Positions 34,179 to 61,899 are shown, numbered from the stretch's first letter. The stretch: 64,000 nt of DNA from a virus (IMGVR_UViG_3300035666_000005:32001-96000), one strand, 5' to 3'. Notes: generated by a model from the sequence alone, not told the origin. Numbers and translations: made by a program.

Positions 34179-34188
34179 ATTATGCTAA

Positions 34189-37100
34189 TCATCTAGTTCT
34201 CGGTGCAACGCGTGGCAATATCCCCTGTCTTTCTGCGGAAGCGACCATTTCTGCAGCGCGACCATATTTCTGATCCATTTCGCTTTTGATTTGAGTAATC
34301 AGTGGACCGACTCTTGCTTCAATTTCTGAACCGAGTTCTTTTGCGTAATCTTGGGTTTTTCCTCCGGTCTGGGCTTCGTTTACGGTTAAACCGCCCAAGC
34401 TAACAGAAACCGCAGAAAATTCTGGAACAGAATTGGCAAAGTTGGGAATGTACATACGATTAGCCATTGCCATTCTTTCTTTCGCAATATTATTTTTTTC
34501 TTGTGGTGTATTAAAAGTTGCCATTCCTTCGGGATTATTTAATCCCTGGACTTCTGGTTGACGTTTTTGATAAACTTCGTTTGGAGCAAAGCCAGCATTG
34601 ACTTCGTCCATAAATGAATTTATTTTAGGCAAAAAGCCTTCTGAGTAATTTTTAATTCTAGCGTTTGCGTTATTTTTTTCCATTTCGCGCAATACTTCTT
34701 GTGCTGGCCGTCCATCAATAAGCCCAGCCCCGCCAGGACCATAAGTGGGCTGCTCAGAATTTAAAGGGGATCCCGTTTTTGGGTCAAGACCAGCAGCAAT
34801 CATGGCTCTATCATAGGCGGGATCAGATGGACGATTCGTCCGACCTTCTGCTAAGACTTCTCGCGTTGGGCGACCGTCAATAAAACCTTGACTACGTTGA
34901 TCCTTTGGAATTCCTACGATTTCATCGATTACAGATTCGTTTCTAGCTCTTTGATATAAAGCTTCTTGATCTCTTCCGTAAGCCATCGCTCTATCATAAC
35001 CCTCATTCGGATCTATTCCCTGTTTAGCCCACTCTGCATAAGCTTGTTTTACAGGATCATTCTTTTCATGCTTTTCGTAAATTTCTCTCAGTGACTCATA
35101 TCTGCCTTGTTCATATAAGCGTTTGAATTCTTGTGTTTTCGCCATCAAAGCCCTTTTTTGGTCCATAGATTGGCGGGTTGGCCTATTATAAAAACCTTCT
35201 TGGCCAGAAAGTGCTTGGGTATAAGCTTCTACCAAGCTTTGTAGCATGAATTTGGCATTTGCTTGGGTAGTTCTTTCTGCGCGGCGAATTTCTGTTGTGG
35301 GTTTTATTCCGGCGCGGTCTGTAGATGTAGCGATATTAAATGTTCCGCCAGCCCCAGGTCCGCGCAAACCAAGCCGTTGTGCATCAACAGTAAACGTACC
35401 CGCTCCACCATATTCATCAATTTCATAACGATCACCAGTCATTTCATAACTTCTTGCTAAAGTCTCGCGTCCTCTTTTAATAACTGCTTCTGTTCTTTTA
35501 ATAACTGCTTCTGTTCTTGCTCGTTCTTTAGCCCTTTGAGCGGCTAATTTATCTCTTGCCATCATTTGTTTATCGCTTTGGCGAGATTTGTTCCATTCTT
35601 TTTGTCTATAAAATAAAGTACTTAAATTATATAATTCTCTTGGGTTCAAAAAGTCGCTTGCGTTAGCTCCGGTTTTTCTAAATTCTGAAACTAAAGGTTC
35701 AGCAGCCTTATCATAAGATTTTTCTATTTCATTTATTTTTTCAAGAGTTTTGTCACGTTCTTTTATTAAATTATTTAATTGATCATTATCTTTATATAGT
35801 GATGGATCCCATCCAAAATATTCTTTTAATCTACGATCTCTTTCGGGGGAAGTTAAATCTAATTCTGCCAAATTGTTCCAAGCTTGTTTTGAACGATTTT
35901 CGTCCCAGTTAGCTCTTTTTGCCATGTGATTATAAAAGCTCTTTTTTTTCTCTTCCTGAAAAATGTCAACAAGAGTATTGAGTTCAGTTTTTGACTTCGT
36001 TAAAGGATCTAACTCTTTTTTATATTTTTGATTTATTTCGTTTGCTTGTTTGATAAGACTATAAGGTATTTCTGGCATTGGCACAAAACCTTCTGCGAAA
36101 TTTGGAATATAACCTTCCGCCATGTTTTTGAAAGGATTTTTTATAATTTCCGGCTTTTTCTTTTTCCTGCGGATATATTTTCCGTCTTTATCAAAATAAG
36201 GATTTGGTTTAAATTTCGGATTTTTGAGAAGAAAAAGCTCGTTTCGAAGTGCCTGCTTTTTGCCGTAATCTTTATCTTGATAACCAAAGTCACCAGGTTC
36301 TGGCGTGCGAGGAATCTCATATTCAAGCTCAGAGATTCTTTGGTATAGCTCCCACTCTGGAGTATCCAAAGCACTCATGATGCTTCCCATCCCACTCGTT
36401 ATTCTTTGATTCGATGATGACCCAGAAATGCCCGACTTTGGAACAAAACCTTCCGCCATGTTTTTGAAAGGATTTTTAATTTCCGGCTTTTTCTTTTTCC
36501 TGCGGATATATTTTCCGTCTTTATCAAAATAAGGATTTGGTTTAACGCCATCTTTTGTAAGAATTTCTGCTTTTGGATTTTGAAGAAGAAAAAGCTCTCT
36601 TTCAAGTTGTTCTAATTCGACTCTTTGCAGATATGATACTGGGGGTGTTAATTGTTTAATTTTTGTTTTAACTGATAAAATCCTACTTTCTAATTCGTGA
36701 CGTGGATCGTCAAGATATTTATCAAGTTCTGTCGTATCGAGTTTTGGCAACGATCCTTTTGCCGCGCGTTGCATATCACGAGTTAAAAGAGCATCTTCTC
36801 CGGTCCCCATGTAATTTTTAATTAATTGTTCTCCTATATTCGCAACAACAGGTGCGCCATTAAAATTGGGTATGAATGTGGGACGATCTGATGGGCGTGC
36901 GCCACCAACGCCTCTTTTTACGTCGCGCTTTTCTGCGATCATTGCAGGAATGGCTTCTAAAGGAATCGATCCAGACGAATATGTTTTCGGAAGTTCTGGC
37001 TTTGGTGCAGTTCTATCTATAACGGGTTTTTCAGTTGGCAGGGTTGCGTTAGAAAAAGGATCTTGTAAAAATTTTGCTATTTTTAAGTCAGCACTATTTT

Positions 37101-40100
37101 GCGTATTTTGAATAGCCTTTAAAATTTCTTCAAGAGTTTTATTCGCGGCAGAAAATTGCAAAGATATAATTTTATTAGTATCCCCCGCAAGAAGCGATAG
37201 AGCGCTATCACCACCTTCGCCGAGTAATTTTTGTAATTCTGGCGGGAGTGAAGATTTTGCCTGTTCAATAAGTTTTTGATTTAATTCTCCAACTTTATTT
37301 TCGCCTTCTACTTGTTGTGTCGCAACTGTTTTACTATAACGTTTAATAAGTTCTGCATCAGATAATTGAGCAGCTTCCGGCTCCCCAATTTGTTCGGCGA
37401 TTGATCTCCTAAAGCCTTCTAAGATTTCTCTTCCAGCCTCTCCTTCTACTCCGCCAAGTCCACTGATGACATTCGTTAATTGATTTTCAATATCTAATGC
37501 CCTAGCATCACGAATTGCGCTAATAACCGCGCTATTTTGACCTAACTCGGGGCCAAGGTTACGCCCAGTAATTTTACTTAATTCGCTAACAACTCTTTGC
37601 AAGTTCCTACCAACTTCAATAATGCCTTTTTCTCCAGTTGGTTCCCCTATAATTTTTAAATTTGCAACGGCTTTATCAAGACCTTCTGTGATACTGATAT
37701 CATCATTAATAAAAGCCTGCAAACCACCAAAAGCACTATTAATAGAGGTTATTAGTTCGCGTAAACTTTCTTGAAATTTTTGATTGGCAAGAATTGTTTT
37801 TTGCTCGATTAAAACTGCTTTATTTTTTACGAGTTCTTGATTAGTTTTATTTATGGCCTCACGAATAGCGTCTAAACGTTTTTCACCTTCGGGGTCACCT
37901 TCGGGAATTTGTAGTGCTTGTGCAATTTCAGATAATTTAGCTTCTACGTCAAAACCAGTAAAAGTTGTCGGGTCTCCGATATCCAATAAACTACGAAACT
38001 GCTCTATATCAAAACCTTGTTTAACTGCTTCAGCTAAAACTCCTGCGGTTTCTAAATTTGCTTCGGCATTTTTTTGTGCATTATCGTCTCCGCCGATTGT
38101 ACTCAAAGCTGCAAAAGATTGTCTTTGTTGTTCAAGAAATGCGCTACCAATTAAACTAATTGTTTCCCCAACAGAATCTTTTATCGTATTGGCAAAATCC
38201 CCTTCTATTCTAAGAAGCTCTCCTTGTGTTTTACTGTCTGCCCGTCCAGCAGGGGTAGTTATTCCAAAAAGTTCTTCTTGAACGGCTTTTGTTTCAAATT
38301 GCGATACGCCGATGTTTGTTCCAGATTTTCTAATAGATGATTCACCCAAAAGTTGTAAATCAAGGGCAGACTGGCTTTGTCGCGCTAATTTCGCATAATT
38401 AGATTGTACGGTTTGTAAAGTTTTAGTTATTAATGCTATTACTTTATTGTTTTCACCGCTATTTCTCCCCGTCGCCTCTAAAGACGCTTTTAATTTATTT
38501 GCGGGGTCCGCAAGTTCGGCTATTAATTTTAAACCAACGCTAGGATTAAGTTTAAGAACAGCAACAAGATCATTAATATTACTTTTACTTAAACCACTAA
38601 GAGGGGCTGTTTGAGTTAAAAGGTTTTCAAACTCTTCAAATATTTTATTCGCTTCATCTGTTGCGAAACCGGTAGGGCCGCCATCTGTTATTAAAGACCT
38701 CCGAGATATTTCCGATAATTGATTTATGCTATTTTCATCTAATTGCGTAATATTAATAATATCAGAAAAATTTTCTCCAATTTTGTCAAATTGTTTTTCA
38801 GAAATATTACCAGTAGATCTAGGCAGGGATTCAACTAAACTTGTTACAGCTAAATTTTTTTGCTGCGCTAGTGTATTTTCTAAAACAGCATTTGTATTTT
38901 CTCCGATTACTTTTTGTAGAGATATAAAATCTTGATTTATTACAGCGGCGCTAGCTCCAGAAACTAATTCCGGAGTATCTCTAAATTCTTTTCTAATAAA
39001 TGAAAGTAAATCGGCTTCTAATTGGCCAGCTCTCTCGCCTTGACCAGCTTCTCTTAATTGTTTAATCTGTTCAAAACTAGTTTGAACTTTTTGTCCCGCG
39101 TCATTTATCTTTGTAAGATTTTCAGAAGCCTTTTGTGCGGCGGCAGATAATTCTGGAATATCGGTAGACGCTTGTTTAATAACATCTATTAGCCCAAGCA
39201 AAGCTCCAGCGCTACCACCAATTGCCGCGCCAACAAGTGGATTTGGTGCCAGCATTGCCCCAAGACCAGCAAAAGATCCCACTTGACCCAGAGCGCTAGC
39301 CCCAGCACCTAATGTTCTATCTGCTTTGGTTTCTTTCCCAATGGCATTCGCAATTGTTTCTGCAATAATTGGAGCTGCGATGGTTAAACCAATACCGCCT
39401 GCGCCAATAGCTGCGCCAGCTCTTTGACCACCTGTAGCTCCGTATCTTCCTTCTAACCCTCGAGCTTGGGCCTCTTCACCTGTTATTTTTCCCATTGCGA
39501 CGAGTTGAGTATTAGCTGCTTTTTGAGCCTTTGTTAATTCTCCTGTTACCCGACCAGCTTCTTTATTTTTTTGAGTTAATTCAGTTAAACTTTGTTTATA
39601 AGAATCTCCAAAACCTTGAAGGCCAAAACCTAAAAATCCAATTTGAGTTGCAAGAGCCCCGAGTGAAGATCCTAAATCTGCTGCTTGGGTATCTTCTGGT
39701 GCGAAGTTTGGAACAAAACCGCGAGCGAGACCTTGGGAGGCCGCCGAATTTTGAATCGCGCGCTTTAGACCTTCTGGATGATCTTTTTTAATCATCGCAT
39801 TAAAATTAGACGATTGTCCGGGCTGGCGAACATATTGCATTCCTTTGTATTCGTCAAGCACAGCCCCTTTTCCGGCTTTTTTCTCTGTCTGTATAGCTCT
39901 TTCTCTAGCTTCTGTAATTGTTTTAGCAAAATTTGGAATAAAGCCAGCAGCTTTTCCTACAATACCAAATCTATCCCTTAAAGCTTGTCTTATCGCAACA
40001 CTTCCAGTAACCCCCTCTTTTCTTAATTGGTCTACTGCGGCAGATCTTTCTTTAAGATAAGCGGCTCCAGCTTTACCACTAGTTTTTTGAACAGTTGCTC

Positions 40101-43100
40101 CAGGTTTAGTTTCATTAAGAAGCTTTTGTAAAACTTCATTCGTTAATTCTGGAGATCTTTTTGCATCATATATCCCAGGAGCATTATTAAATATTGATCT
40201 TAGTCTTGGACTGATCTTACGAAAATCAATTCCGGCGTTCTGTTTTCTAACTTGATTCTGTAACAATGTTGTAATACCGCCTTCAAAAGCAACACCTACA
40301 GCGCCTTTTGCGGCACCAGCGTTTGGAAGTTCATCGGCAGATTTTAAGAAATTAAAACCACCCAATGACTGACCAAATTGATTAGCTTGTTTTACTAAGA
40401 AATCATCTATCTCTGTATCTAAATCTGGTAGTTGTGATTTAAGTTTGTCTTTATTTATTCCTGCTACTGGAATATTACCTGTATATTGTTGTTTTAAATA
40501 TGTTGCAGTGGCTGGCGCTAATTCATATGGTCCAGAAAGCCCAGGATAAATAAGAGATAAAACTTTTTTACCAAGTTTATTTGGAATTTTATCTAAATTT
40601 CCTAATTGAATTGGAGGGTTTTTTGTTTGGGCAAAATTTGGGATAAAGCCAGAAGCTAAATTTTTAAATGGAGCATAAGATAAAATAATATTTTTTAATT
40701 TTAATTCATCAATAGTTCTATTTTTATATTTACCTCCAGCAGTTTGACCTTCATATTGTAAAGCTTTTGCGATTAATATATTATCTGAAACTTTTCTTTG
40801 TGTTATTTTAGATTCTACTAAATAACTACCCCCCTGTTTTTTGACTAAAAAGTCCGCCCCAAATAAATCACCTTGCTTTTCTGCTACGCGACCTTTAGAA
40901 CCAAAACGTCGCTGGGAATCTATTTCCCCCATTGCCCCTTTAATATTTGTATTATTAGAACGATCTTTTTTGGGGTCTAATAATGTTTGTGGTTTAATTT
41001 TATCTGTAAATTTAGAAATTGGTATTCCGCGATATTGCGAATTTTGGAAAATTGAGGCAACAGAAGAAGGATTTGAAGAAGCTTGATTTCTTATATTTTT
41101 AATAATATTATCTGCTTCTTTAGTATATTCTTTTACATTTTTAGGTAATGGTAATCTTTTTATGTTTGGCCTAAAATATTCATCTTTTATTCCTTTATCT
41201 TTCGAATCTCCAACATTATATAAGTTTTGCAATAACCCTGCGGATCTTGACGCTTGTTTTTGTAAATTAGCAATTGTATCAACCGCGAAATTTGGAATAA
41301 AACCTTTTGCTTTATTTCTATCACTCTTATCTAAAATACTTCCACTTTCGCCATTAGCGATCATCTTTGTCGCTTCTTTAATTCCGTTTCCATATTTTGG
41401 AATTACTGCTGTTTCGCCTGTATTGGCAAAATTTCTTATTTGTAATTCTTGATTATTTGCTTCAAAAGATTTGCCCCCAATTTTTCCTACACCACGAACA
41501 GCCTTAACATTAGATGTAGCTCCTAATACTTTCGCTTGAAACTCTTCAGCAAAATTAGGAATATACCCACCAGCTTTTCCAGGTTTTGAAGTTTTTGCAA
41601 CGGGAACTCCACCAGCAACTGTAACACTACCAGACCGAATAAATTGTGACGCAATTTTTGCAGAAATAGCTTCTTGTTTTTGTAATTCTAAAGTTTGTGC
41701 TCTTAAACTATTTAATAAAATTTCAGCGCCTTTATTTAAACCAGCGCTTCCTTGCTGCATTAATTTAAATAGTTCTGGATTTTTTTGTAAAATTTGTGCT
41801 ACACTTTGCTGTAATTGCTGTTGTTGTTTAGAAGCTGTATTTAAATTTAAAAGTTCTTTTAAACTTCCAGTCGCAAATTTTGCCAAATCTGAAAAAAGTT
41901 TAATAAAAATTCCGCCAATTAGTGCAAGTCCTGGGCCAGCAATTACTTGACCTAATCCATCTAAAATACCTTTTCCTAATGTGGCTCCCACTCCTTGCCC
42001 ATCAGATTCATTAATACCACCAAGAATCTCATTCGTATTACCTACAACCCTATCAAAAGCTGGGCCAAATAATCTCTCACCAATTCCAGCCCCAGCCTGT
42101 TTAGCATTTTCTCTTAAAGCGTTTAATTGGGCAGCGTAAGTTTTATTTAATTCTTCATTACGACGAATAGCTTGGTCAGTAGTAGAGGCAGCGACCTGTA
42201 AAGCGTTATTGTATATAGAATATTCTTTACCTAAGTCTGCCAATGCAGATTTTAAAATGTTAATTTGGAATACGCCGCCAACTTTTTCTGCGACCTCTGC
42301 TTGTTGTAACGTTCCAAGTTGATCGTAAACTTTAGCAAGATCTGTTAATAAATTAATAGTACTTTTAATTTCTCCAGAAGAATCTCTTGTATTAACTCCC
42401 AAGCCTTCTAGTAAATCAACAACTTTAGTTCTTTGAAGTCTTGTGAAAATAGTTTTAAAGGAGTTACCGATTACCGCGCCACCACGAGCAGTTGTTTGTT
42501 GAGCCGAAGTAACAATGGCTATGAGTTCATTTAACGAAACGCCTGATTGAGCCGCACTACTACCAACACGACTAATTGCTTCTGCAAGATCTGCAGAACT
42601 TACCGCAAAAGCTGCATCAACATTAGCAAACTTATTAACAATTTCTGTCGCCGTTACGGCTTGGCTAGCAAAAGAGTTTACTGACGCGGTAAGAGCTTCA
42701 ACACTTTTAGCGGCATCCAATCCACTCAAACGAGAAAGAATTAAGGCCTCGTTAGTTCTTTTTAATGTTTCTGCGACACCCAAACCTTGACGAGAAAATT
42801 CTGTAGCGGCTTTGGCAACTTCTGCGAAACTTTGCCCAGTATTTTTAGCGATACTAAATAAATTAGAACCAAATTTATTTAATTCAGAAGAAGAGACATT
42901 TAAAATAACATTAATATCTGCTAAAGCTTTTTGGGTTTCTATGACAGAGCTGGCTAAAGCAGTAAAAGCTCTTTGTACTCCAAAAATAATTCCAGCACTA
43001 GCACCGAAAGCGATAACACGCGCATTAGAAGCATCTAACGATTTAGTAAATTCATTTACTTTACCAGTAATCCTTCCAAGAGGCTGGTCGCCCCTTGTCT

Positions 43101-43194
43101 TTAAATTAATGTTGTAAGAACGACTAACAAGCTTTTGAATGTCTTTTTCAGCCTGTCTTGTATTTGCGCCTACATCAATATTAATAGCAGCCAT
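34189..43194 (-). CDS. tail tape measure protein (TP901-like core) with multiple inserted cassettes
   Basis: 3001 aa; N-terminal FSRQG...DAAFAVSSADLAEAISRVGSSA...GNSFKTIFTRL core; follows tail tube and chaperones; recurring G[FY][IV]PNFA motifs. Confidence 0.92.
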   Translation of the reverse strand: MAAINIDVGANTRQAEKDIQKLVSRSYNINLKTRGDQPLGRITGKVNEFTKSLDASNARVIAFGASAGIIFGVQRAFTALASSVIETQKALADINVILNVSSSELNKFGSNLFSIAKNTGQSFAEVAKAATEFSRQGLGVAETLKRTNEALILSRLSGLDAAKSVEALTASVNSFASQAVTATEIVNKFANVDAAFAVSSADLAEAISRVGSSAAQSGVSLNELIAIVTSAQQTTARGGAVIGNSFKTIFTRLQRTKVVDLLEGLGVNTRDSSGEIKSTINLLTDLAKVYDQLGTLQQAEVAEKVGGVFQINILKSALADLGKEYSIYNNALQVAASTTDQAIRRNEELNKTYAAQLNALRENAKQAGAGIGERLFGPAFDRVVGNTNEILGGINESDGQGVGATLGKGILDGLGQVIAGPGLALIGGIFIKLFSDLAKFATGSLKELLNLNTASKQQQQLQQSVAQILQKNPELFKLMQQGSAGLNKGAEILLNSLRAQTLELQKQEAISAKIASQFIRSGSVTVAGGVPVAKTSKPGKAGGYIPNFAEEFQAKVLGATSNVKAVRGVGKIGGKSFEANNQELQIRNFANTGETAVIPKYGNGIKEATKMIANGESGSILDKSDRNKAKGFIPNFAVDTIANLQKQASRSAGLLQNLYNVGDSKDKGIKDEYFRPNIKRLPLPKNVKEYTKEADNIIKNIRNQASSNPSSVASIFQNSQYRGIPISKFTDKIKPQTLLDPKKDRSNNTNIKGAMGEIDSQRRFGSKGRVAEKQGDLFGADFLVKKQGGSYLVESKITQRKVSDNILIAKALQYEGQTAGGKYKNRTIDELKLKNIILSYAPFKNLASGFIPNFAQTKNPPIQLGNLDKIPNKLGKKVLSLIYPGLSGPYELAPATATYLKQQYTGNIPVAGINKDKLKSQLPDLDTEIDDFLVKQANQFGQSLGGFNFLKSADELPNAGAAKGAVGVAFEGGITTLLQNQVRKQNAGIDFRKISPRLRSIFNNAPGIYDAKRSPELTNEVLQKLLNETKPGATVQKTSGKAGAAYLKERSAAVDQLRKEGVTGSVAIRQALRDRFGIVGKAAGFIPNFAKTITEARERAIQTEKKAGKGAVLDEYKGMQYVRQPGQSSNFNAMIKKDHPEGLKRAIQNSAASQGLARGFVPNFAPEDTQAADLGSSLGALATQIGFLGFGLQGFGDSYKQSLTELTQKNKEAGRVTGELTKAQKAANTQLVAMGKITGEEAQARGLEGRYGATGGQRAGAAIGAGGIGLTIAAPIIAETIANAIGKETKADRTLGAGASALGQVGSFAGLGAMLAPNPLVGAAIGGSAGALLGLIDVIKQASTDIPELSAAAQKASENLTKINDAGQKVQTSFEQIKQLREAGQGERAGQLEADLLSFIRKEFRDTPELVSGASAAVINQDFISLQKVIGENTNAVLENTLAQQKNLAVTSLVESLPRSTGNISEKQFDKIGENFSDIINITQLDENSINQLSEISRRSLITDGGPTGFATDEANKIFEEFENLLTQTAPLSGLSKSNINDLVAVLKLNPSVGLKLIAELADPANKLKASLEATGRNSGENNKVIALITKTLQTVQSNYAKLARQSQSALDLQLLGESSIRKSGTNIGVSQFETKAVQEELFGITTPAGRADSKTQGELLRIEGDFANTIKDSVGETISLIGSAFLEQQRQSFAALSTIGGDDNAQKNAEANLETAGVLAEAVKQGFDIEQFRSLLDIGDPTTFTGFDVEAKLSEIAQALQIPEGDPEGEKRLDAIREAINKTNQELVKNKAVLIEQKTILANQKFQESLRELITSINSAFGGLQAFINDDISITEGLDKAVANLKIIGEPTGEKGIIEVGRNLQRVVSELSKITGRNLGPELGQNSAVISAIRDARALDIENQLTNVISGLGGVEGEAGREILEGFRRSIAEQIGEPEAAQLSDAELIKRYSKTVATQQVEGENKVGELNQKLIEQAKSSLPPELQKLLGEGGDSALSLLAGDTNKIISLQFSAANKTLEEILKAIQNTQNSADLKIAKFLQDPFSNATLPTEKPVIDRTAPKPELPKTYSSGSIPLEAIPAMIAEKRDVKRGVGGARPSDRPTFIPNFNGAPVVANIGEQLIKNYMGTGEDALLTRDMQRAAKGSLPKLDTTELDKYLDDPRHELESRILSVKTKIKQLTPPVSYLQRVELEQLERELFLLQNPKAEILTKDGVKPNPYFDKDGKYIRRKKKKPEIKNPFKNMAEGFVPKSGISGSSSNQRITSGMGSIMSALDTPEWELYQRISELEYEIPRTPEPGDFGYQDKDYGKKQALRNELFLLKNPKFKPNPYFDKDGKYIRRKKKKPEIIKNPFKNMAEGYIPNFAEGFVPMPEIPYSLIKQANEINQKYKKELDPLTKSKTELNTLVDIFQEEKKKSFYNHMAKRANWDENRSKQAWNNLAELDLTSPERDRRLKEYFGWDPSLYKDNDQLNNLIKERDKTLEKINEIEKSYDKAAEPLVSEFRKTGANASDFLNPRELYNLSTLFYRQKEWNKSRQSDKQMMARDKLAAQRAKERARTEAVIKRTEAVIKRGRETLARSYEMTGDRYEIDEYGGAGTFTVDAQRLGLRGPGAGGTFNIATSTDRAGIKPTTEIRRAERTTQANAKFMLQSLVEAYTQALSGQEGFYNRPTRQSMDQKRALMAKTQEFKRLYEQGRYESLREIYEKHEKNDPVKQAYAEWAKQGIDPNEGYDRAMAYGRDQEALYQRARNESVIDEIVGIPKDQRSQGFIDGRPTREVLAEGRTNRPSDPAYDRAMIAAGLDPKTGSPLNSEQPTYGPGGAGLIDGRPAQEVLREMEKNNANARIKNYSEGFLPKINSFMDEVNAGFAPNEVYQKRQPEVQGLNNPEGMATFNTPQEKNNIAKERMAMANRMYIPNFANSVPEFSAVSVSLGGLTVNEAQTGGKTQDYAKELGSEIEARVGPLITQIKSEMDQKYGRAAEMVASAERQGILPRVAPRTR
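35473..35518. repeat. 21-nt tandem duplication (RTEAVIK x2) in the tape measure
   Basis: TCTTTTAATAACTGCTTCTGT twice. Confidence 0.9.
36111..36545. repeat. about 100-nt direct repeat in the tape measure (36111-36212 and 36447-36545)
   Basis: identical except for a 3-nt indel; encodes KPNPYFDKDGKYIRRKKKKPEI(I)KNPFKNMAEG. Confidence 0.92.
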
Positions 43195-53045: not shown

Positions 53046-53741
53046 TTATAATCTTGCTGCTTGGATATGCATCGCATCCATATTTCTTTCTTTTAACAAA
53101 CTAACCCAGCCTTCAGATTCTACAATTTTCCAAAAATCATTATAAACCGGTTTTGCAAAAGATGCCTTATCTTTCCCCCATTTTAATTGATTATTATCTG
53201 GATCTAAATCAATTGCCGCTCCCCAGCTATGTATGCTCCAAGCTGATCCCCCGCGCATACGACGAACATTTAAACACCCGCCAAAAATATCTAAACGCAA
53301 TTTAGATATTTCTTTTTCGCCATATATTTTCAATGTATTTTCAAAAATTGTATAAAGTGATTTCGAAACTTTTTCATGACAAGTAATTCGTGTTAATGTT
53401 GTCGATGGTGCCCATGCTAATTTAAGTTTATATGGAAGATCTAGTTTAGTTTGATTTTCACCGACTGGTCCATAAAAATTAACCATACTTGTATAATTTT
53501 GTTTTGGCCATTTTTGAGAAAGTGGCGTATTGTTAGAAATATTAGTTACAAGTTTCCAAGTTTTCGGACCTACAACCCCATCTGGTTTTAAACCATTTTT
53601 AAGTTGAAATTTTATAGTCTCCCGTTCAGTTGCTGGACCAAAAGCCCCGTCAACATAAGGAATTTTATAACCAGCGCTCTGCAAAAACAATTGCCATTGT
53701 TTTACTTCTTCACTCACATCTCCTTTTTGTAAAACTTTCAT
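53046..53741 (-). CDS. endolysin: PG-binding domain + M15 peptidase
   Basis: DGAFGPATERE..KFQ...GLKPDGVVGPKTW; R.MRGG..WSIHSWGAAIDLD...DAMHIQ. Confidence 0.92.
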   Translation of the reverse strand: MKVLQKGDVSEEVKQWQLFLQSAGYKIPYVDGAFGPATERETIKFQLKNGLKPDGVVGPKTWKLVTNISNNTPLSQKWPKQNYTSMVNFYGPVGENQTKLDLPYKLKLAWAPSTTLTRITCHEKVSKSLYTIFENTLKIYGEKEISKLRLDIFGGCLNVRRMRGGSAWSIHSWGAAIDLDPDNNQLKWGKDKASFAKPVYNDFWKIVESEGWVSLLKERNMDAMHIQAARL

Positions 53742-53745
53742 ATTA

Positions 53746-54219
53746 TTACCCTTCTTGATTAAACACCCAATCTATTGGGGCATATGATAGGTCATTTTTA
53801 TATTTTTCAGCATAGACAACCGTTTGTTCTTCAATAATTTTTTCTTCACGTTGCTCAGATGTCAATACAGAATCTAAATTTGTGTTAGAGCTGCTGGCAA
53901 AACGAAAATCAGCAACAGTTTGAACGCCCAAGTAAGCTGCGATAATAATCGCAAAAACTTCTATTGTTTTTGAAAAAATTTGAACATAGCCAGCTATAAG
54001 CTCATTCCCTTTTGGTAAAAAAAACAAAACCGCAACAGAAATTATATAAAATAACATCAAACTAATAAATGATGTGAAGGCTATAAAAAATTTTTTAGAT
54101 GCAAAGTGGTTTTCATTACGCATTGCTTTATACAATTCTATAGAAGTTCCTGGCGGCGCTTTGCTAGAGCTTAAAAACGCTCCAGCTGATTTAAATAAAT
54201 TAGTTATATTAGTCCACAT
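53746..54219 (-). CDS. putative holin
   Basis: SKKF followed by two transmembrane helices, AYLGVQ; directly upstream of the endolysin. Confidence 0.7.
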   Translation of the reverse strand: MWTNITNLFKSAGAFLSSSKAPPGTSIELYKAMRNENHFASKKFFIAFTSFISLMLFYIISVAVLFFLPKGNELIAGYVQIFSKTIEVFAIIIAAYLGVQTVADFRFASSSNTNLDSVLTSEQREEKIIEEQTVVYAEKYKNDLSYAPIDWVFNQEG

Positions 54220-54970
54220 ATAATTGCCACCCTTTATATTCTTTACGTTTTCCCTGTATCATACGACAAAATTGTGTTTTTTCTAAACCTCTTTCTCGGC
54301 AGAAATTTAAACATCCAAAACCAGCTGGAACAATTTCATTTGTTAAAGTATTTATTAGAGCTGGTCTTGGTTTAGATTTGTTTTCAGAAATTTTTCTACA
54401 TGTTTCGGATGATCGTTTACGTCCAGTATGAAAAGCGATTATTTTTGCGATACTTTCGGATGATTTTTGACGACCTATTCCCGCAAGTCCAATTTTTCGT
54501 TTTGATTCTTCAGTATGTTTTTTTCCTAAAAATCTTTTAGCATGTTTGCTATTTGTTCCTATTTTACGCTTATGTTCTTCGGAAAGTTTTTTGCCTTTAT
54601 GTGCTAGAGACATTTTACGTTTAGATTCTTCAGTCCTTTTTCTTCCTTTAAGTTTTAAAATATTTTCTGTAGAAAGTTTACCTTTACTACCGCCACCTTC
54701 TCGTAGATTATAATTATCACGTTGATTTATAAATTCTTCTGTTACTAAACATTTTTCAAAAAAATTAAGAGCTACCTGATTAACAGCAAAAAGCAATATT
54801 TCTTTTTTAAAATTATCTTTACCATATTTTTTTAACGCCTTCAAAAGGCTAGATCCACTGCCCATATATCCATCATTTAAATTTTTTGTGGTGTGTTGCC
54901 CAATATACGTTTTTCTATTTATTAAATTTGTTATTTCATATATATAATAATATGTTTTATCAGATTCCAT
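54209..54970 (-). CDS. free-standing GIY-YIG homing endonuclease with NUMOD3 repeats
   Basis: YIYEITNLINRKTYIGQH, GYMGSG, YNLREGG; repeated [RH]TEESKRK[MI]; start MESDK at 54970. Confidence 0.9.
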   Translation of the reverse strand: MESDKTYYYIYEITNLINRKTYIGQHTTKNLNDGYMGSGSSLLKALKKYGKDNFKKEILLFAVNQVALNFFEKCLVTEEFINQRDNYNLREGGGSKGKLSTENILKLKGRKRTEESKRKMSLAHKGKKLSEEHKRKIGTNSKHAKRFLGKKHTEESKRKIGLAGIGRQKSSESIAKIIAFHTGRKRSSETCRKISENKSKPRPALINTLTNEIVPAGFGCLNFCRERGLEKTQFCRMIQGKRKEYKGWQLYVD

Positions 54971-54974
54971 AAGA

Positions 54975-55496
54975 TTATAAAAATACCCAAACAAGTGTTG
55001 CAAATAATCCAGCTCCGCCGATTGGAACTAACAAATTATATGGTGGTGGAACAAAAGTCATAAATTGTAATCCCAACAAAACACCGCCAGCAGCCGCAAT
55101 AAGCGCAGCAATCAATTTGAGACGATGATAACGTTTAATCGCATTTGTAAATTTTTCAAGCCATTTTTGTGCTTCGGCTTGTTGTACTACACCCCATTCT
55201 TTTAAAGTAGTAATATCTTTATTTAACTTTTCAATTTGTATAAATCCATTTTTAATATTAGTATTAGCTTCATTTAAATTTTGTTTCAACTTCGCGTTTT
55301 CATTTTTTGCAATTTTTAATTCGGATTGCAATTCTTTAACTATTTGTTTTGCGTCCTGTATTGGGTTTTTAGATTTTTCTACAACAACTGGAGTTGGTTT
55401 TGGAACTGGTGTGGGCTTTGGTTTTGGTTTCCAAAATTGTCCGAAACTTGTTCCAGACAAAATTAATAATATAATGAATGGTAATAATTTTTTCAT
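54975..55496 (-). CDS. spanin-like / membrane coiled-coil lysis protein
   Basis: signal peptide, PKPTP linker, coiled coil, two C-terminal transmembrane helices. Confidence 0.5.
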   Translation of the reverse strand: MKKLLPFIILLILSGTSFGQFWKPKPKPTPVPKPTPVVVEKSKNPIQDAKQIVKELQSELKIAKNENAKLKQNLNEANTNIKNGFIQIEKLNKDITTLKEWGVVQQAEAQKWLEKFTNAIKRYHRLKLIAALIAAAGGVLLGLQFMTFVPPPYNLLVPIGGAGLFATLVWVFL

Positions 55497-56713: not shown

Positions 56714-59700
56714 TTAACCTACAATTACATAAAAAGTTGCGGAATCTTTTGGTGAAAGCGCGTTGTATTCGGCCTGTGTTAATTTTATCATTGTAGTTAT
56801 TGTATTATTACTACGGATTGCCTCTCCACTTAGGAGCACTCCCGTATTATTTACTAATAATCGCTCATTTGTTATCCATGTCCCAGATAAAATTCTATTT
56901 CTATAATCTAAAGAAATTAGTGTTGTAGTCCAATATAACTGACCTAAATTAAGATCAATTTTTCTATTTGCTCCGTCATCACCTGATCCACGTATTTCTG
57001 GAGCTATAATTACCTGATTAAAGTTTTTAACACCACTTATCGTTTGATCCCCAGTTGTATAAACAACATTTTCTACAACACCCGCAGCGGCTTCTCCTTG
57101 AAGAAGAACTCCCGTTCCATTTACTGTTGGGCGTGAGACAAAATTTTTTGTTCCGCTTATTGTTTGATTTCCTGTTGTATAAACAATATTTTCAATAGAA
57201 GCGCTAGCACCAGCAGCTTCTCCCTGTAATAATACCCCTAATCCATTGACTGTTGGTCTTTTATTTAAAGATAAATTACCATCAATTTTTACGTTTCCAG
57301 ATATTGATAAAAATTCTAAATTTTGTGGATGCCCAATTTCGAAATTACTTTTATCAGTGGTATAAATAAGCCCACCACCATAACCCACGCCATTAGATTG
57401 TACTTCGAAATTAGAACCTAATAAAAATATATTTCCACTTTTGTTTATCGCAGCAGCGTTTAAAAATCTTCCGTAAAGAGGTGCAACACTAGCCGCTTTG
57501 TAAGCTGCGTCAAAATCACCCAAAAATGTTTTAGATAAATTCCAACCATTTGTAGGGTTTCCAGTATATGCATATGCAATTCCCGCATTTCTTGCCAATT
57601 GGTCATCACTGCCAGCGCCAATTAATAGAATAGAACCATTACTATTCATTTTTAAAGAAGATCCGAACCCCTGTCCAGAATTAAAACCAGTGATTACTTG
57701 TTTTAAATTCCAAATACTTACAGAATTACCAGTAAATATTAAAACTGCGCCGACAGAATTATCAGAAGAAGAAACTAATGGAGAATTATAACTTGGGCCA
57801 CCTAAAGCTATTATAGAAGCATCTTCACTTGCGGCTAAACTACTTCCAAATCTAGGGCCAACTGTAGACCCAAATTGACTTCCAACCGGGCTTGGAATAC
57901 CTAATATTTTTTCTTTAAAAGCCCAACCATTTATTCGATTGCCTGTAAATACTGCAGCTCCTCCGGCATTATTACCACCGTCATCATCATTTCTAGAAGT
58001 TATAATACATATTGTACCATCATAATTTAAATATGTTTGACTACCATATGCATCTCCACCTATTACTGATAATTTTTGTTTAAAATTCCAACCATTTATT
58101 GAATTACCTGTATATAGCCTAATGGATCCGTCAGCAGGATTTGGTAATAAAGAATCGAATGAACTACTAACTCCAATAACAGAGGCGTCTTTTGAAATAC
58201 CTATTGAAGTAATTCCATTATTCAATGATTCATTTAAAATAGAATCTTTTAATTCCCATTTACTATTAGAATTTCCAGTATAAATAGAAACGACTCCAGT
58301 TCTTGAAAAACTATTATTATTAAGCGTCGAACCAATAATTACAGATCCATCACCATTCATGCCGATCCTAAGTCCCAAATTATCGTCTGGAAAATTACCA
58401 GTTATTTTTTGTTTAATTTCCCAACCATTATTTTTATTTTCTGTATAAATTAGAATGGCTCCACGATTATTTGCACCTGCGGATGGTCCACCAAAAGCAA
58501 GTATATCACCATTATCATTAAAAACTGAAAGATTGTAATTAGCAAATTCACCATCTCCAGTAATTTTTTGTAAAAACCTATAATCTTGCTCAAAAACACC
58601 CGAATTTATTTTAAAATTATCTTTTGTTAATGCTTCGCCGCTTAAGAGAATTCCACTATTATTTACTGTTAATCGATTGTTAAAATTTTTAATACCACTA
58701 ATAGTTTGATTACCGATATTATAAACTAAATTTTGTGCGTAAATATTCCCATCTATCATTTCGTCTGCTTTAGATAAATAAATAGGATTATTAAAAGGGC
58801 ATGCTACAATATATTTTGCATCTGAAGAGATAGAAATTCCCTGCCATTGAATAAGAGCTATACTTGATAATGGAGTTTTTTCTACCCAAGTTTGTCCATA
58901 ATTTTGTGAAAAATGAATATTATTATTATTAGAAATAAAAATTTGATACTTTCCACATGAAGACATTCTAATTTTATTAATTACTCTATTACTTGTTAAT
59001 TTCCAAGTATTACCATAATCACTAGAAATATAAATACCATTAAAAGTTCCAGCTGTTTGAAATTGGCCATCGGAAGACATTGCCAAATCTAAATAAGTTG
59101 TTGTTATGTTTTTTTCTGACCAGGTTTGGCCATAGTCTTGTGAAATAAAGATTTTTCCATTACCACCAGCAACAGTAATATATCTTCCATCAGAAGAAAT
59201 AGCTGCACTTACCCATTGAACCGATAAATTTAAATTTCTACTACTCGTGTTTTGTATCCAAGTATTACCATAATCACTAGAAATATAAATAAAATTACCA
59301 TTACCAGCCCCAGCCGCAATTTGATATTGACCATTTGAAGATATGTCTACATAATTCCAAGATGTAGATGGACCCTTACTTATCCATGTATTTCCATAAT
59401 CATTTGAAACATAAATATTTCCATTTTCAACAGAGGTTATTTGGTATTTTCCGTCAGAGGATATTCTAACGGATTTCCAATCCCTAATCTCTTGTCTCTC
59501 CCCCCAAGTTTCTCCATAATTATTAGAAATATAAATTCTACCATTACCAATGACTGCTGTTATATATTGACCATTTGAAGACATAGACACATCTGTCCAT
59601 AAACGAGCGGTCTCAGTAGAAATCCAATTATCGCCAATATTAATAAGTTTTGTATTATTTTGTGTTAATTTAGTCTTTCCTAAAAAATTACCCCCATCAT

Positions 59701-59971
59701 AATAACCAGTACGATTATTGCCTGTAATTTGTCCACTAGGCTGAGAAACAAAAAATAAATTATCTGATAACACAAAAGAATCAAATATTCCAGATACATT
59801 ACCCGTTAATAAAAAATCTATTTCCGTAAAATCTCCGAAAGTAAGCAGTCCAGTATTTAAATATCTAGGACGATCATAAAAATTTTTAACACCAGAAATA
59901 ATTTGATCACCAACCGTATAAACAATATTTGGTGATCCAAGTGGATAATAATCTGATAATCTAAGACTCAT
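56714..59971 (-). CDS. fibre protein with Asp-box propeller, FG-GAP-like propeller and VYTTGNQTISG repeats
   Basis: SxDYGxTW repeats; GAxxIYTG repeats; C-terminal LTQAEYNAL..KD..TFYVI. Confidence 0.75.
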   Translation of the reverse strand: MSLRLSDYYPLGSPNIVYTVGDQIISGVKNFYDRPRYLNTGLLTFGDFTEIDFLLTGNVSGIFDSFVLSDNLFFVSQPSGQITGNNRTGYYDGGNFLGKTKLTQNNTKLINIGDNWISTETARLWTDVSMSSNGQYITAVIGNGRIYISNNYGETWGERQEIRDWKSVRISSDGKYQITSVENGNIYVSNDYGNTWISKGPSTSWNYVDISSNGQYQIAAGAGNGNFIYISSDYGNTWIQNTSSRNLNLSVQWVSAAISSDGRYITVAGGNGKIFISQDYGQTWSEKNITTTYLDLAMSSDGQFQTAGTFNGIYISSDYGNTWKLTSNRVINKIRMSSCGKYQIFISNNNNIHFSQNYGQTWVEKTPLSSIALIQWQGISISSDAKYIVACPFNNPIYLSKADEMIDGNIYAQNLVYNIGNQTISGIKNFNNRLTVNNSGILLSGEALTKDNFKINSGVFEQDYRFLQKITGDGEFANYNLSVFNDNGDILAFGGPSAGANNRGAILIYTENKNNGWEIKQKITGNFPDDNLGLRIGMNGDGSVIIGSTLNNNSFSRTGVVSIYTGNSNSKWELKDSILNESLNNGITSIGISKDASVIGVSSSFDSLLPNPADGSIRLYTGNSINGWNFKQKLSVIGGDAYGSQTYLNYDGTICIITSRNDDDGGNNAGGAAVFTGNRINGWAFKEKILGIPSPVGSQFGSTVGPRFGSSLAASEDASIIALGGPSYNSPLVSSSDNSVGAVLIFTGNSVSIWNLKQVITGFNSGQGFGSSLKMNSNGSILLIGAGSDDQLARNAGIAYAYTGNPTNGWNLSKTFLGDFDAAYKAASVAPLYGRFLNAAAINKSGNIFLLGSNFEVQSNGVGYGGGLIYTTDKSNFEIGHPQNLEFLSISGNVKIDGNLSLNKRPTVNGLGVLLQGEAAGASASIENIVYTTGNQTISGTKNFVSRPTVNGTGVLLQGEAAAGVVENVVYTTGDQTISGVKNFNQVIIAPEIRGSGDDGANRKIDLNLGQLYWTTTLISLDYRNRILSGTWITNERLLVNNTGVLLSGEAIRSNNTITTMIKLTQAEYNALSPKDSATFYVIVG

Positions 59972-59988
59972 TATTATTTAATTTACAC

Positions 59989-60216
59989 TTATATAAAGGT
60001 ATTTGTTTCTGAATTATATGTTTTATACATATAATCTGGATTATAACCAGTAATAACACAAAGCGGTTTTATATACATAATTCCAGTTGTTTGATTATTT
60101 TCATCAATTAAAAAACTTGGTATTGCTGGGATTGGTTCTCCAGACGTATATATTTTATACGTATAACCATCTATACGATTACTTTTTGGATCAATAAAAT
60201 ATGTTACTTTTCTCAT
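59989..60216 (-). CDS. hypothetical protein (possible fibre chaperone)
   Basis: 75-aa ORF tightly packed after the collagen-like fibre gene. Confidence 0.55.
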   Translation of the reverse strand: MRKVTYFIDPKSNRIDGYTYKIYTSGEPIPAIPSFLIDENNQTTGIMYIKPLCVITGYNPDYMYKTYNSETNTFI

Positions 60217-60217
60217 A

Positions 60218-61894
60218 TTAAATTATTTTACTTATAAACATAAATGGAAGATTTCCATAGGGTGGTAAATATACAGGGTATCCCCATGGCTGGTCAGGTT
60301 GACCCTGTACAATTCTTAAAGCCCCAGCATGTAAAAAATCAGCCACTACATATTGAGGAGTTGTTATTTTAAAAGTGGTAAATCCTGCACACATAGCTTC
60401 TCCATTAAAAGTTGTTGCAATTGGGCCCTGCGCAAAAGATGAAAGCACGCGAGGTCTTTGAGGGCTAAAAGGAAGTAATGGTGGAGGATTTCCGGGGCCA
60501 AACCCCACATCTAGAAGAGGATTATTTATGGTTAACCCTCCAGGGATTTCAGTATCCCAAGATCTTAATCTTGCTCTTAAAAAATCACTTGTATCTCTTA
60601 AATTATAAGAACTGTATCTTAAATCTACATTATAAACCCCAGGTTCTCTAAAATAAATATTTTTTGTAGTAGAATTATAAGTTATAAATTTTGTATTATC
60701 TATTGTAGAAGAAATGGCAGTATAATCGGTGTTAAAATATTCAATATTATTCCAAGGTATTTTATAATTGTTAACATCTAAACTATCAAATAGTTCATTA
60801 TTATTATTTTCTTGAATACTCAAATATAATAATGGAATAACATTGTTATTATTTACAAATTGATTATTTGAATAACTATTATCTAAAATACTTATTCTCC
60901 ACCCATAGGGTTGACCCTCCCAAACTAAAATAAAATGCGCGCCTCTTATATCACAAATTAAACCAGGAAGTCCAGAAAAACCTTCTATATTATGAGTGTT
61001 ACTTTGAACAATTAAATTATTTATATGAAAACTTTTATTAATATCGATAATTTCTATAATATCCCCCAACTCTAAGCCAATAACTGGCAAAGATAATGTT
61101 AAACTATTAACAGAAGTATCAACTGCAATTTTTGAATTTCTTTGTATATTTCCGGAAACATTTTGAGAAGTAAATCTTAAAATAACTGGACCAGTTGAAC
61201 CTGTAGCTCCTGTTGACCCTTGTATTCCAGTTGCGCCTGTTAAACCGGTCGCGCCAGTTGCTCCAGTTGAACCTGTAGCGCCTTGTGCCCCTGGAGGGCC
61301 TTCTAAATTAATTTGCCAAGATGTAAATGTTCCAGAACCTACTACACTTGTAATATTAACAGTAAGAGAATTTGAGGTATAGTTTAAAACTATACCTTTC
61401 ATAAAATTAATTACAGAATTAGCTATTATTACAGGTTGTCCTATAGAATACGCTAACCCAGTAGACACGATAAAAGTTTTTGAACCAAGTGTAATTGAAT
61501 GACTTGTATTAGAAGATGTGAAATACTTATCTCCTGATAAACCAGTTGCACCAGTAGAACCGATTCCCGTTGCTCCAGTTGCGCCTGGCGTACCAGTGCT
61601 TCCAGCTGGTCCAGTAGCGCCAGTACCTCCAATAGTACCAGTAGCGCCAGTGGCACCAGTAGCGCCAGTGGCGCCAGTGGCACCAAGTCCACCACTAGCA
61701 GTACTTAATTCTTGCCAAGACGTTCCATCATAATAATAATACTTGTTCTGATTTGTTACATAAACAATAATACCTTGATAAACACGATTTGATGCAACCA
61801 ACGCATTTCTAGCTGCTTCATTGGCAACAACAATTCTATTATCAAGTGGAACTTGAGAATTTAAGTTAAAATTTAATCCTAAGGGTATAGCCAT
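60218..61894 (-). CDS. collagen-like fibre protein
   Basis: (GAT/GST)n triplets; PLDNR...GIIVYV...W N-terminal module; VDTS..SLTLSLP..GD fibre module. Confidence 0.8.
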   Translation of the reverse strand: MAIPLGLNFNLNSQVPLDNRIVVANEAARNALVASNRVYQGIIVYVTNQNKYYYYDGTSWQELSTASGGLGATGATGATGATGATGTIGGTGATGPAGSTGTPGATGATGIGSTGATGLSGDKYFTSSNTSHSITLGSKTFIVSTGLAYSIGQPVIIANSVINFMKGIVLNYTSNSLTVNITSVVGSGTFTSWQINLEGPPGAQGATGSTGATGATGLTGATGIQGSTGATGSTGPVILRFTSQNVSGNIQRNSKIAVDTSVNSLTLSLPVIGLELGDIIEIIDINKSFHINNLIVQSNTHNIEGFSGLPGLICDIRGAHFILVWEGQPYGWRISILDNSYSNNQFVNNNNVIPLLYLSIQENNNNELFDSLDVNNYKIPWNNIEYFNTDYTAISSTIDNTKFITYNSTTKNIYFREPGVYNVDLRYSSYNLRDTSDFLRARLRSWDTEIPGGLTINNPLLDVGFGPGNPPPLLPFSPQRPRVLSSFAQGPIATTFNGEAMCAGFTTFKITTPQYVVADFLHAGALRIVQGQPDQPWGYPVYLPPYGNLPFMFISKII

Positions 61895-61899
61895 AATTT

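Follow-up and report, generated by a model that had tools for sequence, protein, structure and literature searches.

The sequence considered here is a window of 64,000 nucleotides (nt; IMGVR_UViG_3300035666_000005:32001-96000) from an uncultured lake phage, whose parent virus record comprises 120,876 bases and is approximately 80% complete. All positions are counted from the first letter of this window. Its largest open reading frame (ORF), at 34189-43194 on the minus strand, consists of 3001 codons plus stop and encodes a protein of 3001 residues. When the whole protein was compared with Pfam, the sole match was PF10145 PhageMin_Tail at amino acids (aa) 116-307, which scored 95.8 bits (cut-off 33.2). 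In PHROG, the N-terminal part is matched by eleven tape-measure families (best E 3e-50), their best stretches lying mostly inside aa 12-521, with two that reach aa 801 and 938. Given the PF10145 match and the PHROG families, the ORF is identified as the gene of a TP901-type tape measure protein (TMP). The present work deals with a short peptide, G[FY][IV]PNFA, that recurs in this TMP, and with the protein segments that lie between its copies.

The TMP starts with a core that is well conserved in the family, as 114 N-terminal segments from 120 proteins fall into one cluster (cluster 0) and the mean column identity of the corresponding alignment A7 amounts to 79%. A first array of motifs covers aa 541-1165 and is followed by a second TMP-like part at approximately aa 1166-2072, which is presumably helical. 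Hydrophobic, Gly-rich segments were found by the Kyte-Doolittle scale at aa 60-85, 413-441, 1259-1286 and 1318-1339. A second, C-terminal array contains two tandem units of approximately 111 aa, the canonical motif at aa 2359-2367 and five decayed motifs; beyond aa 2200 it is common to only 2-7 of 119 relatives. Hence, the preliminary description, which was made from the sequence alone and let the motif array simply follow the TMP core, has to be corrected: the first array is placed between the core (aa 1-540) and the second TMP-like part, and another one occupies aa 2073-2920. As a side observation, the G+C fraction is 0.38-0.40 across the TMP gene (window 34001-40000) compared to 0.27-0.30 in the genes downstream (26-34 kb), which may be a mere effect of the Ala/Gly-rich composition.

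Translation of the 64-kb window in all six frames revealed six exact copies of the strict motif, all of them in the TMP, and a degenerate DNA pattern gave five matches in the 120.9-kb record, all of them inside the TMP gene. The recurrence reported in the preliminary description is therefore real and far beyond chance, and its coordinates agree with ours within approximately 3 bases for the exact copies and the variants. All degenerate copies that it had listed were also found by our scan. However, TFIPNFN does not mark a boundary but sits within a weak copy of the first small module (E 0.001, one comparison). Read by eye, the relative P0008 has the fuller versions GFIPNFA and GFIPNFS at the positions of GSLPK and EGFLPK, respectively, and for this reason the latter two look like decayed motifs.

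Exchange of modules at a conserved peptide

A family search with TMP aa 520-1200 as query resulted in 129 proteins of 1650-5252 residues, nearly all of the listed ones carrying PF10145. The strict motif was present in all 121 proteins examined, at least three times in 118 of them and up to nine times, in a sample that is biased towards motif bearers because the relatives were gathered with words from the motif-rich region. The logo of 596 copies reads [AS]-x-G-[FY]-[IV]-P-N-F-A (position -2 A 71%, S 17%; position +6 A 83%), in which F/Y and I/V fill the two variable positions and G, P, N and F are fixed by the regular expression (regex). A relaxed regex applied to 218 proteins gave 1148 copies; position 2 was F or Y in 1039 of these, and 1064 had F at position 6. 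Over the ten residues upstream of the motif, the net charge averages +1.57 compared to a background of +0.16 for the proteins overall. In IMG/VR, the DNA pattern matches at least 120 stretches. Among the 28 complete ORFs with the peptide in these stretches, 15 encode giant proteins of 1798-3593 aa and the remaining 13 are shorter than 250 aa and represent wrong-frame nonsense, so that the peptide is, in this material, specific to giant TMPs. Codons in 45 motif copies from nine genes were near the gene background, with a mild excess of GGT, ATT, CCA and GCA. Since the codon usage of the motif is close to background, selection acts on it as a peptide, i.e. at the amino-acid level.

Some lineages use a dialect of the motif. 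Eight of the 218 proteins deviate from the consensus in at least half of their own copies. The protein of L138 has Y at position 6 in 6 of its 7 copies (42 of 1148 overall) and F/Y at position 2 in none, and in L139 and L140 position 2 is L or M in 6 of 8 copies. Within these proteins the synonymous codons differ between copies (Leu as CTA, TTA and CTT; Gly with three codons in L138 and two in L139), which led us to reject recent gene conversion as source of the dialects. Because some lineages have altered one and the same position in almost every copy of the motif, and have done so with different codons, the dialects are most simply explained by a single shared, co-evolving reader on which all copies of a phage depend. 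The L138 gene itself (L138:9959-20599, plus strand) encodes a 3547-aa TMP with the dialect x-[IV]-P-N-Y-A and belongs to a metagenome bin labelled Candidatus (Ca.) Neomarinimicrobiota. Other relatives occur in bins labelled Ca. Staskawiczbacteria, Proteobacteria and Halobacteriovorax; these labels conflict, and the binning of phage contigs is unreliable. The window stretch is present in 24 listed lake or freshwater metagenome runs, with at least half of the sampled words in 13 of them; none of the 24 is an RNA data set, which has no bearing on expression. Among GenBank phages, the N-terminal core matches only relatives of approximately 25% identity (e.g. Bacillus, Flavobacterium and Lactococcus phages), and tblastn with TMP aa 499-3001 gave no match.

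The segments between the motifs are subject to turnover. When 120 proteins were cut at the motif (P0002, the cluster representative of the window's own protein, was left out) and the pieces were clustered by BLASTP at the arbitrary thresholds of 1e-5 and 60% mutual coverage, 713 segments fell into 125 clusters. A wider sample of 204 modules resulted in 84 clusters. No fewer than a dozen unrelated clusters take the place behind the first small module, where the window protein has module B; those of other relatives include clusters 8, 14, 17, 20, 10, 9, 25 and 27. Some relatives have additional modules inserted, and small modules of 60-85 residues, which are of two kinds, appear repeatedly in several places. 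In a six-protein alignment, identity ends just after motif 2 and restarts at motif 3, corresponding to a swap of module B, and the same stop-and-restart is seen at motifs 4 and 5, where module D is swapped. When the window TMP was compared to 119 relatives, the BLAST alignments had 350 internal endpoints, and 116 of these fell no more than 12 residues away from one of the six canonical motifs, compared to 6.8% expected by length. Since the homology breaks between relatives fall at the motif, its previously suggested role as recombination junction is supported at protein resolution. At the level of the compared proteins, it is shown that modules come and go, are duplicated and replace one another, and that the breakpoints coincide with the peptide. 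This is the cassette turnover with a conserved motif that the preliminary description anticipated; collinear homologues or ordinary TMP helices between the motifs, which it had named as arguments for abandoning the idea, were not found. Overall, its interpretation is supported in part, with cleavage at the motif and delivery of effectors as its putative elements.

One relative, P0015, has an insert of 719 residues in the variable slot (residues ~640-1358), with a Walker-A-like GxxGxGKS/T read by eye and a weak cytidyltransferase-related Pfam match below the cut-off. We also considered split TMP genes, which were rejected as no locus had two motif-bearing ORF pieces. Database proteins that are short or lack their N-terminus start inside modules or are located on short contigs, and hence seem to be artefacts of calling or assembly.

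At the DNA level, the AT bias of the codons gives many motif copies the same or almost the same 21-nt sequence, and this could offer microhomology for module exchange. The C-terminal array includes a recent tandem duplication. Its two 73-nt stretches, at 36140-36212 and 36473-36545, share 99% identity at a spacing of 333 nt, and both units terminate in a motif, with the sequence ...KNPFKNMAEG[FY][VI]P. A comparison with metagenomes, resting on short Logan contigs, revealed a variant of this region. In the lake metagenome run X9, not the likely source of the record, a 1316-nt contig joins 36143 to 36477 and omits exactly 333 nt in frame, and the skipped part is still covered at a lower, non-zero depth. 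We take this as a probable polymorphism in the copy number of a unit that ends with a motif; alternatively, the joint could be an assembly collapse of the 69-nt exact repeat. The crossover of the deletion lies in the 73-nt repeat, not in the motif. Loose contig ends near motifs 2 and 3 were dismissed, since they represent ordinary divergence where translated.

Structure and identity of the modules

AlphaFold2 was applied to TMP aa 531-1175 with 28 relatives as alignment. The model has a mean predicted local distance difference test (pLDDT) of 61, and all five motifs are situated in stretches below 50 (model residues 1-18, 73-148, 282-328, 553-567 and 577-645), a confidence value that is not a measure of disorder. 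These stretches separate a four-strand small module (pLDDT 57-68), the core of module B (86-94) and module C (74-90). Because all five motifs are placed in low-confidence stretches between folded parts, the segments are, according to the model, folded modules joined by flexible, peptide-bearing linkers and not TMP helices. The earlier impression of globular segments unlike TMP helices is hence supported by the prediction, most clearly for module C.

The modules are maintained by selection. Compared to the relative in L006, the ratio of non-synonymous to synonymous substitution rates (dN/dS) is 0.095 for module A, 0.12 for module B, 0.16 for module C and 0.17 for the core, all approximate values as dS is near 1, and these low ratios indicate that the modules are under purifying selection. 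The slot of module A is occupied in most relatives by clusters 5, 7 and 16. Module C is found in 57 of 120 proteins (cluster 3) and in 39 loci of the wider sample. Modelled alone with 35 diverse relatives it reaches a pLDDT of 90.1 and a predicted template modelling score of 0.77. Alignment A3, which comprises 36 sequences of 17% mean identity, has the invariant residues G967, D990, K1012 and K1024 and the near-invariant F970 and E971. They include an E...D...(D/E)xK signature (E971, D990 and, in YDAK, K1012), and this residue pattern resembles PD-(D/E)xK nucleases. In module B the pattern was read from the sequence only.

Structural and profile searches did not assign these modules. The model of module C had no match in PDB by Foldseek (best E 0.23) or in BFVD (best E 0.22), the wide VIA search gave nothing beyond Z 4.2, on the helical hairpin of the last two helices only, and the PDB profile search gave no more than noise from lectins (E 0.08); ESM Atlas had no match, and homologues with a length of 124-396 aa were absent. 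For the 645-residue model of aa 531-1175, neither Foldseek against PDB (best E 0.43) nor the wide VIA search (best Z 3.8) revealed anything. For module B, VIA listed the restriction enzyme PspGI at Z 2.9 and rank 49. A sequence search in 1.84 billion representatives gave only 10 matches to this module, of which the top seven belong to proteins of 1889-3524 aa. Its ESM Atlas lead was Tox-REase-7 with a score of 0.88, below the trust mark, and this lead to restriction-endonuclease-fold toxin domains is unconfirmed. As PF15649 had no match at E<=10 in the 120.9-kb record, an identity of module B as Tox-REase-7 was not borne out. Among 20 module representatives from other phages, a staphylococcal-type nuclease (SNase, 38.4 bits) and a GNAT acetyltransferase (23.5 bits) passed the Pfam cut-off, one gave a weak P-loop match and 17 had no match. 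In the whole relatives P0037, P0015 and P0075, nothing besides PF10145 was above the Pfam cut-off. Hence, "effector" is a plausible label for the modules rather than a result.

Neighbouring genes and other features of the window

The coordinates of all features are given in Table 1. The ORFs of 283 and 340 aa upstream of the TMP gene accompany motif-bearing TMPs in 43 and 50 of 131 loci, respectively, and the range of 43-50 also applies if a 367-aa ORF is included. The position upstream of the TMP is the usual site of chaperone pairs joined by a frameshift. In the window, 44257 is the end of the 283-aa ORF; the frame of the 340-aa ORF, which is +1, is open from only four codons ahead of its GTG. 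An in-frame stop is present in the L033 homologue of the 283-aa ORF. The neighbours of the TMP had no PHROG match and only sub-threshold Pfam matches. A complex prediction of the 283- and 340-aa proteins with TMP aa 531-645 gave a score of 0.00 (mark 0.32), which, run without controls, speaks neither for nor against binding. Outside the window, a genome with adjacent 264- and 254-aa ORFs (G000:C1:13802-15369), distant paralogues of 260-370-aa ORFs near TMPs in 29 other loci, may contain extra tail-tube-like genes far from the tail module.

Farther along the window there is a weak, sub-threshold scaffold-like match. The endolysin, with its PG_binding_1 and Peptidase_M15_4 domains, points to a host with peptidoglycan. 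An endonuclease-like ORF sits among the structural and lysis genes. Among the fibre-like proteins, which include receptor-binding proteins of the BppL_N type, the 1085-aa one has BppL_N and Phage_tail_C above the cut-off and sub-threshold BNR/Asp-box-type matches, the 558-aa one has collagen repeats and the 373-aa one BppL_N.

Table 1. Features of the TMP gene and its surroundings in window coordinates. Motif copies were located by the regex G[FY][IV]PNFA; the position of the Gly residue is given, followed by the window coordinates of the 9-residue peptide.
Feature	Position	Strand	Remarks
TMP gene	34189..43194	-	single ORF; PF10145, PHROG
N-terminal TMP core, aa 1-540	41575..43194	-	family-conserved; hydrophobic aa 60-85, 413-441
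Motif copy 1, AGGYIPNFA, aa 541-549 (Gly 543)	41548..41574	-	regex; model residues 1-18, pLDDT <50
Small module A, aa 550-628	41311..41547	-	predicted four beta strands, model residues 35-69, pLDDT 57-68
Motif copy 2, AKGFIPNFA, aa 629-637 (Gly 631)	41284..41310	-	regex; within pLDDT <50 model residues 73-148; homology of relatives ends here
Module B (segB), aa 638-846	40657..41283	-	variable slot; model core pLDDT 86-94
Motif copy 3, ASGFIPNFA, aa 847-855 (Gly 849)	40630..40656	-	regex; within pLDDT <50 model residues 282-328; homology restarts here
Module C (segC), aa 856-1081	39952..40629	-	most widespread module; predicted alpha/beta
Motif copy 4, AAGFIPNFA, aa 1082-1090 (Gly 1084)	39925..39951	-	regex; pLDDT <50 at model residues 553-567; boundary of module D swap
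Small module D, aa 1091-1156	39727..39924	-	two family types, clusters 1 and 4; low-confidence model
Motif copy 5, ARGFVPNFA, aa 1157-1165 (Gly 1159)	39700..39726	-	regex; within pLDDT <50 model residues 577-645
Middle TMP-like part, aa 1166-2072	36979..39699	-	clusters 2 and 6; Gly/Ala-rich hydrophobic aa 1259-1286, 1318-1339
C-terminal array, aa 2073-2920	34435..36978	-	partly decayed motifs; weak A-like start, weak D-like module ending in MYIPNFA
Variant copy TFIPNFN, aa 2106		- (strand of TMP)	same scan
Degenerate copies GSIP aa 2075, GSLPK 2147, EGFVPK 2249, EGFVPM 2369, EGFLPK 2853			regex scan
Tandem duplication	36140..36545	-	73-nt stretches 36140-36212 and 36473-36545
Motif copy 6, aa 2359-2367 (Gly 2361)	36094..36120	-	regex
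Variant copy MYIPNFA, aa 2914	34435..34455	-	same scan
C-terminal TMP tail, aa 2921-3001	34192..34434	-	also in relative P0007
Two upstream ORFs, 283 aa and 340 aa	43233..45108	-	usual tail-assembly-chaperone position; conserved beside motif-bearing TMPs
Endolysin	53046..53741	-	PG_binding_1 and Peptidase_M15_4 domains
Endonuclease-like ORF	54209..55003	-	two NUMOD3 above cut-off; SegE-type GIY-YIG 23.7 bits vs cut-off 25
Three fibre-like proteins	56714..63021	-	1085, 558 and 373 aa

A proposed modular carrier and its possible reader

We consider it somewhat better than an even bet that a TP901-type TMP has been turned here into a modular carrier, in which two arrays of independently folding, peptide-fenced modules are set between TMP-like parts. 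Each module boundary would be a flexible, basic linker with the peptide [AS]-x-G-[FY]-[IV]-P-N-F-A, and one partner common to all copies in a phage would read it. By analogy with polyproteins, the putative reader would most likely be a site-specific processing protease that frees the modules, although we give this identification rather less than an even chance; it would act during tail maturation or after ejection. In siphophages the TMP is expelled ahead of the DNA. Because TMPs are known to be ejected, the modules, being parts of the TMP, would arrive as finished proteins in the envelope or the cytoplasm of the host. The near-identical 21-nt motif sequences would supply the microhomology for module exchange. 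One may go further and regard the peptide as the address label of a dedicated processing or loading system, in which any protein placed between two copies is packed, expelled ahead of the DNA and freed in the host, the partner co-evolves with the label and the dialects are the trace of it; this extended proposal is speculative and we would rather doubt it.

Several points weigh against a carrier that is cut at the peptide. Folded modules of 200 residues would be hard to fit in the lumen of a tail tube. Five of approximately eight C-terminal motif copies are decayed, so that some copies are dispensable. Searches of the 120.9-kb record for MPTase-PolyVal PF18818 (E<=1), Peptidase_S78 PF04586, ClpP PF00574 and S49 PF01343 found none of them, in a record that is approximately 80% complete and whose proteins are rarely recognised by Pfam. 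The motif is in no other protein of the record, hence it is not a general head-maturation site. The modules of this TMP gave no recognised enzyme family (Pfam E<=0.1) or fold, and in the wider sample enzyme families are rare, with 2 of 20 modules above the Pfam cut-off. The binomial p of 4e-48 for the enrichment of BLAST endpoints is overstated, because related proteins were counted as independent. Finally, one ancestral copy per lineage followed by synonymous drift would alternatively give dialects without any reader.

Alternatively, the peptide may be a docking site for a tail-assembly partner, in which case the TMP would stay in one piece. One site per module would let the tube polymerise across the non-helical inserts, with the 283- and 340-aa proteins or the tube protein as partner. 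The single motif per module in exposed basic linkers, the dialects implying a shared reader, the frequent presence of the 283-, 340- and 367-aa ORFs beside motif-bearing TMPs, the missing matches to the four protease families and the restriction of the motif to the TMP are all in line with such docking. However, tail assembly chaperones are known to wrap helical TMP segments and not short peptides, and the decayed copies tolerated in the C-terminal array are likewise difficult to reconcile with it. In the one characterised fusion of a TMP with an enzyme, the enzyme is proposed, in the available part of the account, to act while associated with the TMP pore (PMC10770324), which again would suit a TMP that remains intact. 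On balance, docking is a possible but not a probable explanation.

If there were no reader at all, the peptide would be a favourable linker or a recombination scar that hitch-hikes with each module. This would agree with the many copies that are identical or nearly so over 21 nt, with the breakpoints at the motif and with units duplicated and deleted in the wild. But evolvability alone cannot hold nine residues, and the relaxed set, in which F/Y at position 2 and F at position 6 are kept in the vast majority of the copies with synonymous sites at background, argues that the peptide is selected; moreover, the dialect copies differ in codons and the one wild deletion crossed over in the 73-nt repeat instead of the motif. 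Hence, a mere scar appears improbable. Even smaller is the chance of a self-cleavage, for which the Asn-dependent maturation of nodavirus and tetravirus capsids is the precedent: the motif would cyclise its Asn and cut the N-F bond. P, N and an aromatic residue at position 6 are indeed kept in all dialects, but known Asn autocleavages need a folded catalytic surround, whereas all five modelled copies fall in low-confidence linkers, and we regard this explanation as very unlikely. The least credible option acts at the RNA level. In their commonest form, the motif codons CCA AAT TTT (e.g. window 41551-41559) include the -1 slippery heptamer A_AAT_TTT, and frameshifting in each copy would produce nested truncated TMPs. 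However, the heptamer-breaking variants CCT, CCG, CCC and AAC occur at about background frequency, for which reason the heptamer is probably incidental, and conservation also reaches residues outside it.

The modular carrier has parallels in several known systems. One of them is that of viral polyproteins, e.g. those cut by potyvirus NIa, in which a cognate protease cuts conserved linker sites of 7-9 residues. Like them, the TMP has a short conserved peptide at each junction, within the flexible linkers that connect unrelated folded domains, and the peptide varies between lineages; unlike them, the carrier is a structural tail protein of a double-stranded DNA phage, and both its cleavage and the protease are putative. 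Polyvalent proteins are giant proteins of mobile elements composed of many unrelated, rapidly shuffled domains, for which the part of the article available to us proposes delivery with the DNA and proteolytic processing to yield functional units (PMC5512222). The present TMP family also strings together many unrelated, shuffled domains (125 clusters in 120 relatives; 84 clusters from 204 modules). In contrast, polyvalent proteins are presented there as packaged in the head or delivered by conjugation, with an MPTase peptidase at their centre (PMC5512222), whereas here the carrier is a TMP and PF18818 MPTase had no match in the record or in the Pfam scan of the TMP. The main text of that paper uses "tape measure" 0 times, and its accessible part describes no fixed boundary peptide like the 9-residue one found here (PMC5512222). 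The 5002-aa TMP gp96 of Thermus phage P23-45, whose N-terminal part is a virion RNA polymerase, likewise brings a folded enzyme into the host and is hence the precedent for enzyme delivery by a giant TMP; however, it has one fixed N-terminal enzyme, and the available account mentions neither a repeated delimiter peptide nor module turnover (PMC10770324). The TMP of mycobacteriophage TM4 contains an embedded peptidoglycan-hydrolase motif, i.e. also a functional element apart from the ruler, but, as far as the accessible text goes, this is a short cell-wall-directed motif and not an array of swappable, peptide-fenced modules (PMC1796659). In our search of the literature, we found neither the motif described nor any TMP with exchangeable modules fenced by it.

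If the modules are delivered, the phage would bring an exchangeable set of ready-made proteins at the very start of infection, among them possibly nucleases, acetyltransferases and many unknown activities, which bears on host takeover and counter-defence. This large family of uncultured phages is also a rich source of folds that lack solved relatives, such as module C with a pLDDT of 90 and no PDB match, and its dialects permit a search for the partner by covariation. Furthermore, the fixed delimiter peptide suggests a rule for the insertion of cargo into a tail protein, which could perhaps be put to use in laboratory systems of phage and bacterium, where tails would be loaded with proteins of choice. 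Should the peptide really be an address label, this TMP family would represent a natural plug-in platform for protein injection.

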